24,720 nt of DNA from Candidatus Helarchaeota ASGARD archaeon Hel_GB_B (GTDB lineage Archaea > Asgardarchaeota > Lokiarchaeia > Helarchaeales > HEL-GB-B): the NCBI GenBank assembly GCA_005191425.1, contig SUPR01000049.1, positions 1 to 24,720 of the forward strand. Reading direction: 5' to 3'. Below the pieces are notes generated by a model. It did no database searches. It was not told the origin of the DNA and saw only the letters and a program-made list of their open reading frames with translations. This document shows, piece by piece, positions 12,579-18,009 of the stretch (within the stretch, counting starts at the first letter, position 1; each line of letters begins with the position of its first letter). The position numbers and the translations under genes are program-made.

Positions 12579-13202
12579 TTAACTTATTATTAATAATATA
12601 ATAGCACTTAATAAGCTAATTTTTGCAATATTCTTATTTTCAGCAGCGCTTATTATTATTAAGTCATTATTCCTAATGGTTTCAAATTTTTGTTTTAATT
12701 CATTATATAATTTATTGAAATCTCTTTTAATATTAAATTCATCTACCCCTAAAATTATAAAATTATCATTCTTGAACAATAATGAAGTGATACATTTAGC
12801 TCCAAACTTAATTGCTTCATCTCTTAATTTTATTCCTGTCCCGACCATATTCAAAAAGTTTCTAATTTGAAAACCATAATTGAAAGGATACATAGTCAAT
12901 TGTTCGGCGTCATTTAATTCCTCAATTTCAATAATATATTTCTTTAATTCACTTAAAAGTACACTACCTTTTTCTGTTATTTGGCTACCTCTTTTTTTGT
13001 AAGTTGAAATTAACCCGGCTTCGGATAATCGTCTTAATACAGTCCTTATTGATCCTTGACCCAACCCAATTTTTTTGCCAAGAATATAACGCCCTACCGG
13101 CTTTTTAACACTAGATAAATAATCTAAAATAAGGTAAAAATGGGCTATAGAAAATAAGTATCCGGCACCTATATGACTACATAAATTCTTTAATGTCTCC
13201 AA
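12579..13202 (-). CDS. Winged-helix protein with a DUF4443/DUF2111-like C-terminal domain
   Basis: PVGRYILGKKIGLGQGSIRTVLRRLSEAGLI...GSQITEKG (wHTH), then GIKLRDEAIKFGA, typical of this archaeal family. Confidence 0.65.
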   Translation of the reverse strand: METLKNLCSHIGAGYLFSIAHFYLILDYLSSVKKPVGRYILGKKIGLGQGSIRTVLRRLSEAGLISTYKKRGSQITEKGSVLLSELKKYIIEIEELNDAEQLTMYPFNYGFQIRNFLNMVGTGIKLRDEAIKFGAKCITSLLFKNDNFIILGVDEFNIKRDFNKLYNELKQKFETIRNNDLIIISAAENKNIAKISLLSAIILLIIS

Positions 13203-13297
13203 TATAAATCGTCCAAGATCGCGTTTTTAATGAAAAGTAGCTTTTCATATATTAAAAATTGTTTTTATTTTTTATAATAAATATTATCGATTTATAT

Positions 13298-13441
13298 TAT
13301 ATTCTTTTTTATTATGTAAATAAAAGATTTTGATTGGATATGAATTTTGTTAAAAATTCGTTATTCGTTTATATTCTCTTTTACTATGTAAATAAAAGAT
13401 TTTGATTGGATATGAATTTTGTTAAAAATTCGTTGTTTGTT
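13298..13441. repeat. ~72-bp tandem duplication with a 50-bp identical core
   Basis: tatgtaaataaaagattttgattggatatgaattttgttaaaaattcgtt at 13313-13362 and 13385-13434; the flanks also align with few mismatches. Confidence 0.9.
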
Positions 13442-13917
13442 TATTTTTTATATTATTTTTTTTTCTATTTTTAATATGAAGGGCAATTTTAATAATCGGT
13501 CTATTTAACATTAAAGATTTTAATTGACATATTAATTAATAATTGTTTTTAATTAAATAATAATAATTATTTTTCAATCAATTCTATGAAAAAATTAAAA
13601 AACAGAACAATAAAAAAAATTATCTATTAAATACAGAATTTAAAATAAAAAACAATTATATTAATCTAAATTTGATTGTGTAATTCTAAAAATTGCAATT
13701 CTTTAGATTTATTGAATTTTCTATAGAGAATCTCGTAAAATTAATCTAAGAAGGTATTGATCTCGACAAAATTTAAAAGTTTTTGTTTTTTCATTTAAAT
13801 TTCCTCATAGAAAAATACACAAGAAACAAAAGAAGAGTGGTAATTGTTAGAATATTCTTCAGTCGTTGGGGATTTAGTCGGCTACCATAGCTCAGGAGAT
13901 AAAATTGTCGGTCTTCT

Positions 13918-15258
13918 CTATGAAGAAATGTTGGGAGAAAGGACAGCGTCCGAATTTACATAAATATCACGGGACGCTGTAGCCGATTTAATGAGGTCTA
14001 TTCTGCCTGTTTTATATGCCGTGAGTGCAGTTAACCCTTGAGTAATGATATTAAAACTTATAAAAATGAGGGCATTTTCCTTGCCCTAGTTTGGTATGTG
14101 CGTCCGTTGATAGACCACCTTATACAAAGAAAATATGTGCTCTTCACTTGTCCGTATGGAATAAATCTCTTTTCCGGTCTTAATCACCTTTAATTTGGAG
14201 GACTTTTTCCACTTGAGAATGGGGATGAACCCATGACCTGCTACCATCTTGGAATTCTTGTAGGATGCGCCCGTTCCGCTATCCATTAAAAAGTAGGTGA
14301 AGGGTGGGTTTCTTGCTGCCATATATCACCGATATATTTGCCTAAAAGCATGTTTATCGTTCTGACTTGCTTTAATCACATTGTAATAAACAGTGAGACT
14401 ATATTTCCAGTCCATTATTGGTGATTCGGTATAGCCTGGACCTTTATACTTTCCCTTCACGCAGATGCCGCAATCATGACCGGATGAACTTATAATTTCT
14501 TCTTGTTTTAGCTCGCCGCAATTACTAATAAAAGTACCTGCCATCCCAAACGCCTACCTGGTAATCCGCTAGCCCATATTACTCGAATTACTTTACTAGT
14601 AAGCCGTGAAATCCCCGTAAATTAACTGAGCCAATAGCAGTCACAAGTCGTCCATAGTTGCGGACACTGGGCACCCGCTCATTTTCCAGTTCGAATGCGG
14701 AAAGTAAATTATAGTCCGATTCAAGGTCATGTATCCATTGATTAAATTTTACCTGCCCTAACTTGCAGCGCCCAATCTCCAGTTTCACGATATCTTCAAT
14801 ATAGAAACTGCCAAATATTTCTTCCTGCTTGTACGTTAATTCGAGAATATTCCAAAATCGAAAATTATTCAATAAAAAGAGGTCTTTGAGATAGCCATCT
14901 GAGATCTCGAAGTTTCTAAGTGCTTCAATTTCTGCCCATGTCAGCTTTCCTGCCATAAATTCTCCCGGCTGAACCGCTGGAATTTTTGTTCGATATGGTA
15001 ATTTAAAGGAGCTTGAAGCGGATACTCTCTTTCTTTTCATAATTTTCCATCCAAAATCTTCTAACTTTTTCTGGCCGGCCCTAGTCCCCTCTTTTTTTCC
15101 TTCTTTTTCACCGTACGGAACTTTCGGACAAAAATTTGGGTAAATTGATCTCTCCCACGTTTATTGTGTAAATCAATGAATTTTACATTAATTTTTCCGA
15201 AATAATCATCAATCTACATCTGTACCTAGCGTCTTCCTTTTTTTATAATTATGAGCAT
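13918..15258 (-). pseudogene. DDE transposase pseudogene
   Basis: Joining the fragments gives GVWDGRYF (D1), FLMDSG (D2) and YSIRTSEEHIFSLYK (exact Y-2-R-3-E-6-K). Stops at 15226, 15214, 14588, 14579, 14326 and 14086; frameshifts near 15090 and 14530. Includes the track ORFs 14588-15040, 14326-14544 and 14086-14322. Confidence 0.82.
13943..13980. other. GC-rich hairpin near the transposase 3' end
   Basis: acagcgtcc (13943-13951) pairs with ggacgctgt (13972-13980); there is extra attta/taaat pairing in the loop. Confidence 0.6.
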
Positions 15259-15543
15259 TTCTCTTGCCTAATCTTCGCCAATTCATGGTTATATTGTAGA
15301 GTAATGGCACTTACAAATGTTTCGTATTAAATATAAATCAACTAGTCTGTATGGTAGAGAATATTGCCCAGAATTCGGCATTCACATACGTTTAAATAGA
15401 GATAAGTAGAACATTTTTCGGATATTAGAGAAAAATGAAAAATATTATCTTGCATAAAATTTTAAAGTAATTAGGTAGGCAAGAATTTTTTGTCGAAGAA
15501 ATAAGCTTGTTATTTTAATTTCACGAGACCTTCTATAGAAATA

Positions 15544-15559
15544 TTTAAATATTTAAATA
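15544..15559 (+). promoter_or_regulatory. Tandem TATA-box candidates (tttaaata x2)
   Basis: Archaeal TATA-like octamers at 15544-15551 and 15552-15559, upstream of the 15672 gene cluster. Confidence 0.5.
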
Positions 15560-15579
15560 AATAATTAAAAATGTTGAAG

Positions 15580-15598
15580 CTAGGTTAGGGTAGCCTAG
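15580..15598. promoter_or_regulatory. DtxR/IdeR-like 19-bp palindromic operator CTAGGTTAGGGTAGCCTAG
   Basis: Arms CTAGGTTA / TAGCCTAG have 1 mismatch around a 3-bp spacer. It matches TTAGGTTAGSCTAACCTAA at 15 of 19 positions and sits where the TSS is expected. Confidence 0.65.
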
Positions 15599-15628
15599 GA
15601 AAAAAGTGAATATGAAAAAAGTGAATAT
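15599..15628. repeat. 15-bp exact tandem repeat x2 (gaaaaaagtgaatat)
   Basis: Copies at 15599-15613 and 15614-15628, immediately after the palindrome. Confidence 0.75.
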
Positions 15629-15671
15629 AATTAAAGAAAAAAGTAAATAATAGAAAAATCAGAACGATTAA

Positions 15672-16412
15672 ATGATGTGTAATAAAATGAAACAGCGAAA
15701 AATAATTTTACTATTAATAGCACTATTATTAATATTTCCTTTATCTGTAATAAAAGTAAATGCAAATTATGCGAATAGTATAAAGACGAATCAAATATAT
15801 TCATGGAAAATTACAAATATATCTGCAGGTCTAATTCAATATTGGGATTCAAATTGGCAGTTCAGGGGAAATATTAAGGCAAATACAGGTCAGATTGTTT
15901 ATTTTGCTATATCCAGTATAAAAAAGGATATTGAAGGAAATTTTGCCATGGGAAACATGACTACAAAAGATAATGATACAAGTATTGCATATGTGTTAAT
16001 ATTAGGATTTGGAGTTTGGACAAGGCCATGGAATCCAGGTTTAATATCCAGTATTAATTGGACTGAAGAAAAGTCTACTGCAAATAATAGTATAAATGCA
16101 ACAGCCGGTGATATTTTAATTATCACAAACAATAGTAATAAAATCAAATTCAAATATCAACAAGGTAATGGTGGAAATCAGAATACTACATTAGTTTATG
16201 ATATGAATACAGGAATTTTACTTGAATGTTATACGGAAATAAAAATATCCAATGATTATCATTTAGGACTTAAATTTATTGGAGTTACAAATATTACAAA
16301 TATAGGAATTAGTCCATGGCTATTCATGATATCTGGAGTTATAATCGTAGTTTCAGTGGTCTTTATTTTTAAAAAAAACATAATAATTGACCAATTAACA
16401 AAAAGAAATTAG
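15672..16412 (+). CDS. Secreted, C-terminally anchored surface protein of unknown function
   Basis: Signal peptide MKQRKIILLLIALLLIFPLSVIKVNA (likely start ATG 15687), beta-rich Asn/Thr-rich body with many NxS/T sequons, and a C-terminal TM followed by FKK. Confidence 0.75.
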   Translation: MMCNKMKQRKIILLLIALLLIFPLSVIKVNANYANSIKTNQIYSWKITNISAGLIQYWDSNWQFRGNIKANTGQIVYFAISSIKKDIEGNFAMGNMTTKDNDTSIAYVLILGFGVWTRPWNPGLISSINWTEEKSTANNSINATAGDILIITNNSNKIKFKYQQGNGGNQNTTLVYDMNTGILLECYTEIKISNDYHLGLKFIGVTNITNIGISPWLFMISGVIIVVSVVFIFKKNIIIDQLTKRN

Positions 16413-16447
16413 TTCTAAAAAATTTAATAATTTTTTATTTTTTTTTA

Positions 16448-17077
16448 TTGGATCGGATAATTATGAATATGAATAATGAGAAAAATGTTATGAAGGAAAA
16501 TGAAAAGGATAATCAGATAATAAAAGAACCATCAATAAAGAGTAAAAATTTTAATATAGTGCTTATTGCAATGCTAACAGCATTATGTATCTCAGTTAGC
16601 TATATATTATCTCCATTAGCAAATATTGAATTAATGTCATTTATAATTTTTATTTCAGGTTTTATTTTTGGGCTGACAGTAGGTATTGGGGTAGGGACAA
16701 TGGCATCATTAATTTATTATGGATGGAACCCATATGGCCCTAGCAACCCGCCAATTTTTATAGCTTGTGTTTTATGTATGGTTTTATTTGGAGTCATTGG
16801 AGGGATCATGAGAAAAAAAGACAATGATAAATTGGAATATTCTGCTTGGAACGTTTATAAATTTGGAACTGTGGGTCTATTATTAACATTATTATTTGAT
16901 TTGACTACAAACATTATAACGGGGTTTATTTTCTATGGAGGAAATGTCATTATAGCTCTTGTTTTAGGTATTCCATTTCTCTTAATTCATATTATAAGTA
17001 ATACCGCGGTATTTAGTGGACTTTTAATTCCTGTTGTTAATGCAATTAAAAATTTAAATCAATTCAATAAAGTTTAA
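16448..17077 (+). CDS. ECF transporter S-component (CbrT-like)
   Basis: About six hydrophobic helices; IAMLTALCI (AxxxA-type helix 1), PLANIELMSFIIFISG, WNPYG, GIPFLLIHIISN. The true start is probably an ATG a few codons downstream. Confidence 0.75.
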   Translation: MDRIIMNMNNEKNVMKENEKDNQIIKEPSIKSKNFNIVLIAMLTALCISVSYILSPLANIELMSFIIFISGFIFGLTVGIGVGTMASLIYYGWNPYGPSNPPIFIACVLCMVLFGVIGGIMRKKDNDKLEYSAWNVYKFGTVGLLLTLLFDLTTNIITGFIFYGGNVIIALVLGIPFLLIHIISNTAVFSGLLIPVVNAIKNLNQFNKV

Positions 17078-17078
17078 A

Positions 17079-17690
17079 ATGAGAAATATGACAAAATTTT
17101 CAAGTTATAAAAAACGCAATAAGAGTCTAAAATTTTTCATATTTAGTTCGATGTTAATAGCCCTTTTATTTTATGGTGGAATAAATAGTTATAAAATATT
17201 TTATTTTAAATCAAATAATTTACAAATTAATACATTGTCCGTTGAAAATATTACTGTTATTTTTAAGTATAAAGACACTTTATTATTAAATTGTAGTTTA
17301 AATTTTACAGGTAGTCAAATTTCTGTTTTTGATGCTACAATTAATGCATTAGGAGGGATAGAGCATATTAAGTACAACCCCGATACAGGATGTGGGGTGT
17401 TCATAAGAGATATGGAAATCAATAATACATGGTACAAATTATCATCGAACAAGTTTTGGTTGTATTGGGTAAATGGTGAATTTGCAAAAGTAAGTTGTTC
17501 AAAATATAATTTACAATCTAATTCGATAATAGTTTGGATATATACAGATAATTTTCCATATACATCATCGACAGACCAAGATTATTCCGGAGAATTTCTG
17601 ATCTTTATAGTAGTGTTAATATCAATTTTAATTGGTATAGGGGTTTTGGGAATTATAATTAAAAAAAGATTTAGAAATAACGAAGTTTAA
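17079..17690 (+). CDS. DUF4430 (transcobalamin/intrinsic-factor beta-domain-like) membrane-anchored protein
   Basis: N-terminal TM, SVFDATINA, GVFIRDM, FWLYWVNGEFAKVSCSKYNLQSNSIIVWIY (WxYxVNG...Y.L....I.W), and a C-terminal TM plus KKR. Confidence 0.75.
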   Translation: MRNMTKFSSYKKRNKSLKFFIFSSMLIALLFYGGINSYKIFYFKSNNLQINTLSVENITVIFKYKDTLLLNCSLNFTGSQISVFDATINALGGIEHIKYNPDTGCGVFIRDMEINNTWYKLSSNKFWLYWVNGEFAKVSCSKYNLQSNSIIVWIYTDNFPYTSSTDQDYSGEFLIFIVVLISILIGIGVLGIIIKKRFRNNEV

Positions 17691-17727: not shown

Positions 17728-18009
17728 TTAAAGTACCATTACAACTTTTCCAGTTTTTGGGTCAATATAGACAGTTTTTACGCTATCTTCTGGGATTCCA
17801 ATAGTAGTTTTCATAGCTTTTACCGAAATTAGACCTTCTTTTATATCAGCATCTTTTAAACCTTGAAGTTTAGGGGTTTCCTTCATAATTCTTTCCACTT
17901 CATTTTTGTCCAAATTTCGAACGGTAATTTTTGCATCTGGATTTTTCTCAATAAAATCTTTAAAAACATCATTTGCTTTTGCATTTTCAATTATAGTATC
18001 ATTATCCAT
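17728..18009 (-). CDS. Small hypothetical protein
   Basis: 93-aa ATG-started ORF with protein-like composition; the C-terminal VYIDPKTGKVV resembles a PepSY-type hairpin. Confidence 0.6.
   Translation of the reverse strand: MDNDTIIENAKANDVFKDFIEKNPDAKITVRNLDKNEVERIMKETPKLQGLKDADIKEGLISVKAMKTTIGIPEDSVKTVYIDPKTGKVVMVL

Follow-up and report, generated by a model that had tools for sequence, protein, structure and literature searches.

We analysed a 24,720-nucleotide stretch of DNA (the window) on contig C129 of a Candidatus Helarchaeota metagenome-assembled genome (MAG; 3.54 Mb, 93.7% complete). The window carries a gene module that probably captures and imports corrinoids (cobamides, vitamin B12-type cofactors) under the control of a repressor of its own; the ligand is inferred from gene content, regulatory sites and structural models. 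The predicted module is made up of four genes, encoding a DUF4430 protein, an ectoprotein that we call g1, an energy-coupling factor (ECF) transporter S-component and a DUF4443/PH0730-like winged-helix regulator. A first interpretation of the window from its letters alone (the sequence-only reading) had described the first three as a candidate scavenging triad of surface protein, S-component and transcobalamin-like domain, with a tetrapyrrole as the substrate. The triad turned out to be conserved across the Asgard phylum, and the core of that proposal is supported, with a cobamide as the most likely substrate; apparent tetrapyrrole auxotrophy and dependence on B12 strengthen the case.

The distribution of the module was surveyed in 400 Asgard genomes, among which related genomes are non-independent samples. 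A g1 gene was present in 263 of them, usually in single copy. With a g1 profile, 175 representative relatives were recovered from a library of 1.84 billion proteins, mostly ~250 aa long and of the same layout, and g1 is the founder of an Asgard-wide family that has no Pfam model. An S-component of this clade adjoined g1 in all 30 of the best loci, and DUF4430 also did so in 26; two of the remaining four loci were shortened by contig ends. The DUF4443 regulator was present in 18 of 20 phylum-wide loci taken with 14-kb flanks, in at least four different gene orders, which included DUF4430-g1-S-regulator, regulator-g1-S, and a regulator divergent from S-DUF4430-g1. In the window and the Helarchaeota-type loci the order was g1-S-DUF4430, and the regulator was either divergent from these genes or located downstream. 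Of the five Helarchaeota-type lineages, the window being one, four had the S-component flanked by genes for g1-like and DUF4430 proteins; the remaining one, L015/L016, had a DUF4430-like gene 5' of the S-component, and no g1 homologue was identified there. The regulator adjoined the module in all five Helarchaeota-type loci. The persistence of the linkage through these rearrangements argues that the genes form a functional unit. Gene fusions point the same way, as g1 was found joined to the S-component (P0021, P0058) and, in chains of one to three g1 domains, to a following DUF4430 domain (P0090, P0107, P0111, P0146). One g1 fusion locus lies at L034:922-2244 on the minus strand, and 24 tandem g1-g1 proteins were also seen in Asgard genomes.

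The operator and regulator of the module also occurred with corrinoid genes in relatives that lack the module. In G125, a genome of family f21, TAGGATAACTTATCCTA was located 36 nt upstream of a corrinoid operon whose genes were confirmed by Pfam. This operon begins with Peripla_BP_2 (BtuF-like), FecCD (BtuC-like), ABC ATPase (BtuD) and class I/II aminotransferase (CobD-like) genes, continues with CbiB, CbiZ, CobS, a MobA-like nucleotidyltransferase (CobY-like) and a nitroreductase, and is divergent from a DBI_PRT (CobT-like) gene. G121 had a site 48 nt upstream of the first gene of an array with the same order of open reading frames (ORFs), in which only the FecCD and CobS matches were identified. 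In G005, TTGGATAATCCATCCAA stood directly upstream of an operon of BtuF, BtuC, BtuD and the DUF4443 regulator, and the regulator was kept in all six module-less genomes tested. Operator and regulator thus follow corrinoid transport and salvage genes whatever the type of transporter, which indicates that the window module belongs to the same regulon.

At the module itself, the orthologous promoters bore GGGATAAATTATCCC, AGGATAACTTATCCT, TAGGATATTTTATCCTA, TAGGATAGGTTAACCTATCCTA and TTGGATAAGTTATCC, with the common core GGAT-N5-ATCC. The palindrome lay between a TATA-like element and the first module gene in 16 of the 19 Asgard loci examined. Over the 245.6 kb of these loci the pattern GG.TA...TA.CC occurred 21 times, 20 of them at the module promoter, in 16 loci, compared with 3.6 occurrences in shuffled sequence. 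In the orthologous promoters the TATA-like element was 5-20 nt upstream of the palindrome; the site therefore overlaps the presumed transcription start region, which is the position of a repressor site. The strict form of the motif occurred once per whole genome, at the module, in G101 and G362, and at two sites in the source genome, C129:15582 (the module) and C36:945. An Rfam scan of window positions 13000-15800 detected no RNA family, so no cobalamin riboswitch, and no 'CBL-box' was found in the literature searched.

Several other sites and repeats were noted. The second site of the source genome, AGGATAACCTATCCT (C36:945-959, which is L017:945-959), is ~24 nt upstream of a gene for a signal-anchored, secreted protein of >307 aa that has no Pfam family and runs off the contig end; this gene may belong to the regulon as well. 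In G010 and G312, strict operator-like sites other than that of the module were near NIF3/RsmB genes, near a pair of ArsR and carboxyltransferase genes and within a DUF3160 gene. The palindrome at that pair (L078:2974-2988; G312:C1:1218373), between an ArsR-type HTH gene and a methylmalonyl/propionyl-CoA-type carboxyltransferase gene, could be due to chance or could mark an outlying regulon member. In the window, a perfect tandem direct repeat, two copies of GAAAAAAGTGAATAT, occupies positions 15600-15629 between the operator and the g1 start codon.

The candidate repressor is encoded in single copy in the source genome. It matched the Pfam models DUF4443 (6.6e-17), PH0730-like_N and CggR_N, and matched PDB entry 2p8t (PH0730) at 2.5e-13 across both domains. 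A locus search with an alignment of the regulator returned three loci, all from Helarchaeota. No mention of DUF4443 was found in the literature searched.

The need for corrinoids in the source genome appeared to be large. There were 31 matches to B12-binding domains, several with a DxHDxGK-type motif, and the set included corrinoid proteins of ~210 aa with such motifs as well as many ORFs of B12-radical-SAM size. No match to CbiC, CbiB, CobS, FecCD/BtuC, HemB or HemC was obtained in this genome, which looks, from its predicted gene content, like that of a tetrapyrrole auxotroph heavily dependent on B12. Across the phylum CobS was found in 32 of the 400 genomes, where in most cases a strong FecCD match lay in the same cluster. 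In families f20, f21 and f28, CobS occurred in 3 of 5, 5 of 6 and 2 of 5 genomes and g1 in none of them (0/5, 0/6 and 0/5), and in families f19, f18 and f13 CobS was absent (0/19, 0/12 and 0/31) and g1 was present in 18 of 19, 10 of 12 and 18 of 31. In family f16, six genomes had g1 and nine had a strong FecCD match, none of them both, and the same complementarity of g1 and FecCD held in Helarchaeales. HemB and HemC were absent from six of the seven Helarchaeales genomes (G000-G006), and MCR-alpha-like proteins were encoded in six of the seven, in each case the source genome and five of the six others; five genomes, the source included, combined MCR with the absence of HemB and HemC. This implies that Helarchaeales lacking HemB and HemC make neither F430 nor cobamides. 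The only Helarchaeales genome with HemB, HemC, CobS and BtuFCD, G005, lacked the module.

We then consider the proteins of the window. The three structural genes are co-oriented on the plus strand with gaps of 35 and 1 bp, exactly as originally reported, although public records place the likely start of the S-component at ATG 16463, giving 204 aa and a gap of 50 bp after g1. The S-component matched ECF_trnsprt (PF12822; 36.3 bits, cut-off 30.7) and ECF-ribofla_trS (PF07155; 28.2 bits, cut-off 26.7). A simple hydropathy scan gave at least five hydrophobic segments, and a sixth could lie in the C-terminal stretch that remains, so that size and number of transmembrane (TM) helices fit those of ECF S-components (~200 aa, ~6 TM helices). 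Its homologues in Helarchaeota share 40-99% identity with it, and the closest were all from other Helarchaeota. An NCBIfam scan of the three genes gave nothing reliable beyond Pfam, the S-component showing a weak folate-family match.

Gene 3 encodes the sole DUF4430 copy of the genome (PF14478; 32.9 bits, cut-off 23.8). Its AlphaFold2 (AF2) model had a pLDDT of 68 overall and 75-88 within the domain. The top Foldseek match was a DUF4430 crystal structure (3u7z, TM-score 0.71 by target), followed by the beta-domains of transcobalamin, haptocorrin and intrinsic factor, all with probability 1.00; isolated transcobalamin beta-domains superposed on the model with TM-scores of 0.65 (5np4) and 0.60 (5no0). 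A DUF4430 profile run against PDB sequences yielded nothing useful. The g1 protein, correctly recognised at the outset as an extra glycosylatable surface protein of no known family, matched no Pfam family in a scan of the window proteins and contains nine N-X-S/T sequons. It consists of a signal/anchor segment, a beta-rich ectodomain of ~180 residues and a C-terminal TM helix, with hydrophobic segments at residues 11-29 and 215-233 in a hydropathy scan. The DUF4430 protein has the matching layout of signal/anchor, ectodomain and TM segment, with hydrophobic segments at 17-35 and 175-193. The earlier view that it is tethered by TM helices at both ends held in that there is a hydrophobic segment at each end, but it may be that the N-terminal segments of this protein and of g1 are signal peptides that are cleaved off and do not serve as second anchors. 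Modelling of g1 with AF2 from four aligned sequences gave a poor result (pLDDT 47), and a complex prediction for the g1 and DUF4430 ectodomains with deeper alignments scored 0.00, giving no verdict.

The absence of ECF A and T genes from the window was borne out, as neither of the two EcfT/CbiQ matches of the genome is on the window's contig, and the suggested search for ecfAA'T elsewhere was successful. Contig C36 has a cluster of two ABC_tran genes and one CbiQ/EcfT gene with no adjoining S gene, an arrangement typical of shared group II ECF modules, and this stand-alone EcfA-EcfA'-EcfT cluster accounts for the lack of A and T genes in the window. The other CbiQ/EcfT gene is that of a cobalt/nickel system, CbiM-CbiQ-CbiO, on C154. 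A second orphan S-component of 262 aa, matching PF12822 and PF07155, is encoded at C152:11825-12613 (L009).

Table 1. Positions of the module, its control region and the adjacent insertion in the window
Feature	Position	Strand	Remarks
DUF4443/PH0730-like winged-helix regulator	12579-13202	-	Candidate repressor of the module
Inserted repeat element	13731-15547		~1.8 kb; between regulator and operon
AT-rich TATA-like promoter region	15541-15570	+	Read from sequence
Palindromic operator CTAGGTTAGGGTAGCCTAG	15580-15598		Local form (GGTT-N5-AGCC) of the palindrome (T)AGGAT-N5-ATCC(T)A that is found across Asgard loci
g1 (gene 1)	15672-16412	+	246 aa; alternative start possibly ATG 15687
ECF S-component (gene 2)	16448-17077	+	209 aa from TTG start
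Membrane-anchored DUF4430 protein (gene 3)	17079-17690	+	203 aa; transcobalamin beta-domain-like SLBB

The surroundings of these features (Table 1) contain further elements. The inserted repeat element has a second copy at C59:2602-4473 with 86-91% identity, a GC content of 40% against 28% for the genome, and broken minus-strand ORFs of no Pfam family. A tandem repeat of ~72-76 nt at 13263-13472 recurred on >12 other contigs at 90-97% identity, often at contig ends; it could be a short repeat scattered over the genome at which the assembly breaks. Immediately 3' of the module, on the opposite strand, is a 93-aa ORF without a Pfam match (17728-18009, minus strand). Genes called at the same position in L010 (94 aa) and L013 (93 aa) also lack a Pfam match and are likened to it by size and place alone; in the window and L010 the next gene encodes an FAD-oxidoreductase of ~503 aa. 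Neighbouring genes in the window, for a Roadblock-Ras fusion and a LAMTOR5-like protein, suit an Asgard genome.

We believe that the module would work as follows. The two surface ectoproteins would bind the cofactor jointly through the DUF4430 and g1 domains, with g1 in the role of the alpha-domain of animal transcobalamin; the chains in which g1 precedes DUF4430 put g1 at the place of that alpha-domain, and this is the basis for the proposed joint binding. The ectoproteins would then hand the cofactor to the S-component in the membrane, which would dock on the shared EcfA-EcfA'-EcfT from C36, so that ATP hydrolysis could power import. The DUF4443/PH0730-like protein would bind the operator between the TATA region and the transcription start and thereby repress transcription, probably under conditions of plentiful cofactor.

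The palindrome had initially been taken for a DtxR-like box and therefore for a sign of metal regulation, which in turn had raised heme as a substrate. Under this explanation a DtxR/IdeR-type metal sensor would repress the operon, and heme or another metallo-tetrapyrrole would be imported as a metal source. The window operator does agree with the IdeR consensus at 15 of 19 positions, is the sole site with up to four mismatches to that consensus on the window's contig, and has the GG-N9-CC spacing of DtxR boxes. The genome also encodes a true DtxR (Fe_dep_repress and C-domain), divergent from feoA and a split feoB (C152:3482-6477, L009), and a Lactobacillus sakei ECF locus with transcobalamin-like proteins (lsa1836-1840), related to the one described here, has been proposed to import heme (bioRxiv 10.1101/864751). 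Membership of a DtxR/IdeR regulon was nevertheless rejected. The orthologous promoters carry TAGGAT-N5-ATCCTA, which in L010 matches the DtxR consensus at ~12 of 19 positions by our own count, and the 15/19 match of the window is a local peculiarity. The same site was found neither at metal-homeostasis genes nor at the dtxR locus itself; the dtxR-feoAB intergenic region of the source genome contained a different palindrome, TTAGGTACTCCTAA, unlike the module operator, and no site of the module type. The motif co-occurs with the DUF4443 regulator, not with DtxR, and heads the btuFCD-cbiB-cbiZ-cobS operons. The supposed metal box is thus a variant of the operator that travels with the DUF4443 regulator. 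As the argument from metal regulation is unsupported, the case for heme loses its basis; nothing in this analysis supports heme as the substrate, and we regard this explanation as highly improbable.

F430 had also been named as a possible substrate. To our knowledge there is no F430 importer to compare with. The presence of MCR without HemB and HemC in the source genome suggests that it presumably imports F430 by some route, and an external source of F430 seems to be needed. It could be that in Helarchaeales the module imports F430, or a nickel-containing or late tetrapyrrole precursor, instead of or besides cobamides; the absence of the module from the only Helarchaeales genome with HemB and HemC, and the gene order g1-S-DUF4430 peculiar to Helarchaeales modules, would fit. 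MCR-alpha, however, occurred in 6 of the 400 Asgard genomes, all of them Helarchaeales, compared with 263 for the module, so F430 is not the general or ancestral substrate, and the operator is common to cobamide genes. The second orphan S-component could serve other cofactors. F430 therefore falls as a family-wide substrate, and for Helarchaeales we consider this alternative improbable. It is a little easier, yet still unlikely, to imagine an unrelated soluble ligand such as a vitamin, a queuosine or thiamine precursor or a metal chelate, with the fold serving as a generic SLBB scaffold. Ligands of the SLBB superfamily are diverse, the S-component matched only generic and riboflavin-type Pfam models besides the weak folate-family one, and the sensor domain of the regulator is unlike known B12-binding domains. 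Against this, operator and regulator are shared with the BtuFCD-CbiZ-CbiB-CobS operons, the B12 demand of the genome has no other visible supply route, and the closest structures to the DUF4430 model after 3u7z are all cobalamin carriers. Rather unlikely, too, though the least so among these alternatives, is a real corrinoid cluster in which the S-component acts alone as a binder or facilitator, in the manner of BtuM and without EcfAA'T, and g1 is merely a co-located surface protein that takes no part in uptake. ECF A and T genes were linked to the module in none of the loci examined, solitary S-like proteins such as BtuM exist (PMC6072759), and the complex prediction spoke neither for nor against contact between g1 and DUF4430. 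The stand-alone EcfAA'T cluster, as in group II ECF systems, argues for a shared energising module, and g1 is fused to S and to DUF4430 elsewhere in Asgard archaea and keeps its adjacency through several rearrangements.

A number of points weigh against corrinoid import by the module. The gene absences described above were read from an incomplete MAG. In family f6, g1 and strong FecCD matches coexist in a number of genomes, so that the complementarity of the two is partial and not general. The S-component, searched as a single sequence and as an 8-homologue profile against all PDB chains at E up to 10, found no solved S-component, and its nearest Atlas clusters bear generic S-component names only; on its predicted relationships it cannot be assigned to CbrT or to any characterised S-family. 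The missing similarity to CbrT (PDB 6FNP) may stem from extreme divergence among S-components. The DUF4443 domain showed no similarity to the B12-binding domains of the genome (hhalign probability 0.3%). The window operator deviates from the core at one position per half-site (GGTT/AGCC versus GGAT/ATCC), and it is 2.4 kb from the regulator; this distance arose because the repeat element was inserted, and in L010 and L013 regulator and operon are divergent neighbours 134-170 bp apart. The heme proposal for the Lactobacillus sakei locus counts on the same side, as does the caution of Burroughs et al. that in archaea the metabolite scavenged by SLBB proteins might be another one (PMC1796856).

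The import of corrinoids through an ECF transporter has a precedent in ECF-CbrT of Lactobacillus delbrueckii, which imports cobalamin and cobinamide and with which the ECF route for B12 was proven in 2018 (PMC5997447). As in ECF-CbrT, the window S-component is small, the shared EcfAA'T is encoded elsewhere and the host appears unable to make B12. The two differ in that there is no detectable sequence similarity, the host is an archaeon, the module has two surface partners and its regulation appears to be protein-based rather than dependent on genomic context or a riboswitch. Rodionov in 2009 reportedly placed CbrT in an nrdJ-cbrS-cbrT-pduO cluster. Bacterial SLBB loci likewise have a secreted or anchored transcobalamin-beta-like domain beside ECF components, and that of L. 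sakei has a second extracellular partner too. In those loci, however, the partner is an alpha/alpha-toroid, like the transcobalamin alpha-domain, whereas the window partner is the unrelated beta-rich g1; in the window module, moreover, the A and T genes are unlinked and a DUF4443 regulator is included. The DUF4430 model can be superposed on the beta-domains of the animal carriers transcobalamin, intrinsic factor and haptocorrin, and some Asgard chains have g1 before DUF4430 as the carriers have alpha- before beta-domain. Unlike the carriers, the Asgard proteins have no alpha6/alpha6 barrel, share ~10% identity with them, are membrane-anchored and would feed a transporter, not a receptor. The regulator resembles PH0730 of Pyrococcus horikoshii (PH0730-like_N plus DUF4443), a structural-genomics protein for which we found no published function; the present work gives its family a candidate operator and regulon. 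The operator shares with DtxR/IdeR boxes a 19-bp palindrome and its placement over the promoter, and differs from them in the consensus of its orthologues, in its regulator family and in heading corrinoid rather than metal genes.

The general design, a transcobalamin-like surface protein beside ECF components, was predicted for bacteria in 2007, when prokaryotic transcobalamin-like SLBB proteins encoded with CbiO/CbiQ-type genes were proposed to be B12 scavengers (Burroughs et al. 2007, PMC1796856). Archaeal SLBB proteins of this kind were noted in the same paper, and the archaeal setting, which had been put forward as new, is not. Three things we consider new: the module of four genes spread across the Asgard phylum, a third structural component in the form of the g1 family, which is fused to both partners, and the finding that, within Asgard archaea, one operator-regulator pair spans the ECF module and the BtuFCD/cobinamide-salvage operons. 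A broader model, which we offer tentatively and with some doubt, is that g1 and DUF4430 form a non-homologous analogue of transcobalamin and, on the S-component, an Asgard tripartite corrinoid receptor, and that the DUF4443 protein is a B12 sensor over the whole corrinoid regulon (ECF module, BtuFCD and cobinamide salvage), comparable in archaea to the cobalamin riboswitch of bacteria. The same system may also supply F430 in those Helarchaeales that bear MCR and are tetrapyrrole auxotrophs.

Most of the Asgard genomes examined are without the last steps of B12 assembly (CobS in 32/400), yet the source genome encodes the large set of B12-binding domains described above, and the route by which B12 is acquired shapes the syntrophic lifestyle and the cultivability of these relatives of eukaryotes. 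The module offers testable roles for its parts: g1 as a surface co-receptor, the S-component clade as a corrinoid carrier and DUF4443/PH0730 as a protein that represses corrinoid genes through a defined operator. The correction of the metal-box interpretation shows that a plausible 'iron box' can mislead. For the alkane-oxidising Helarchaeales, which have MCR and lack HemB and HemC, the cofactor logic now becomes an explicit question.

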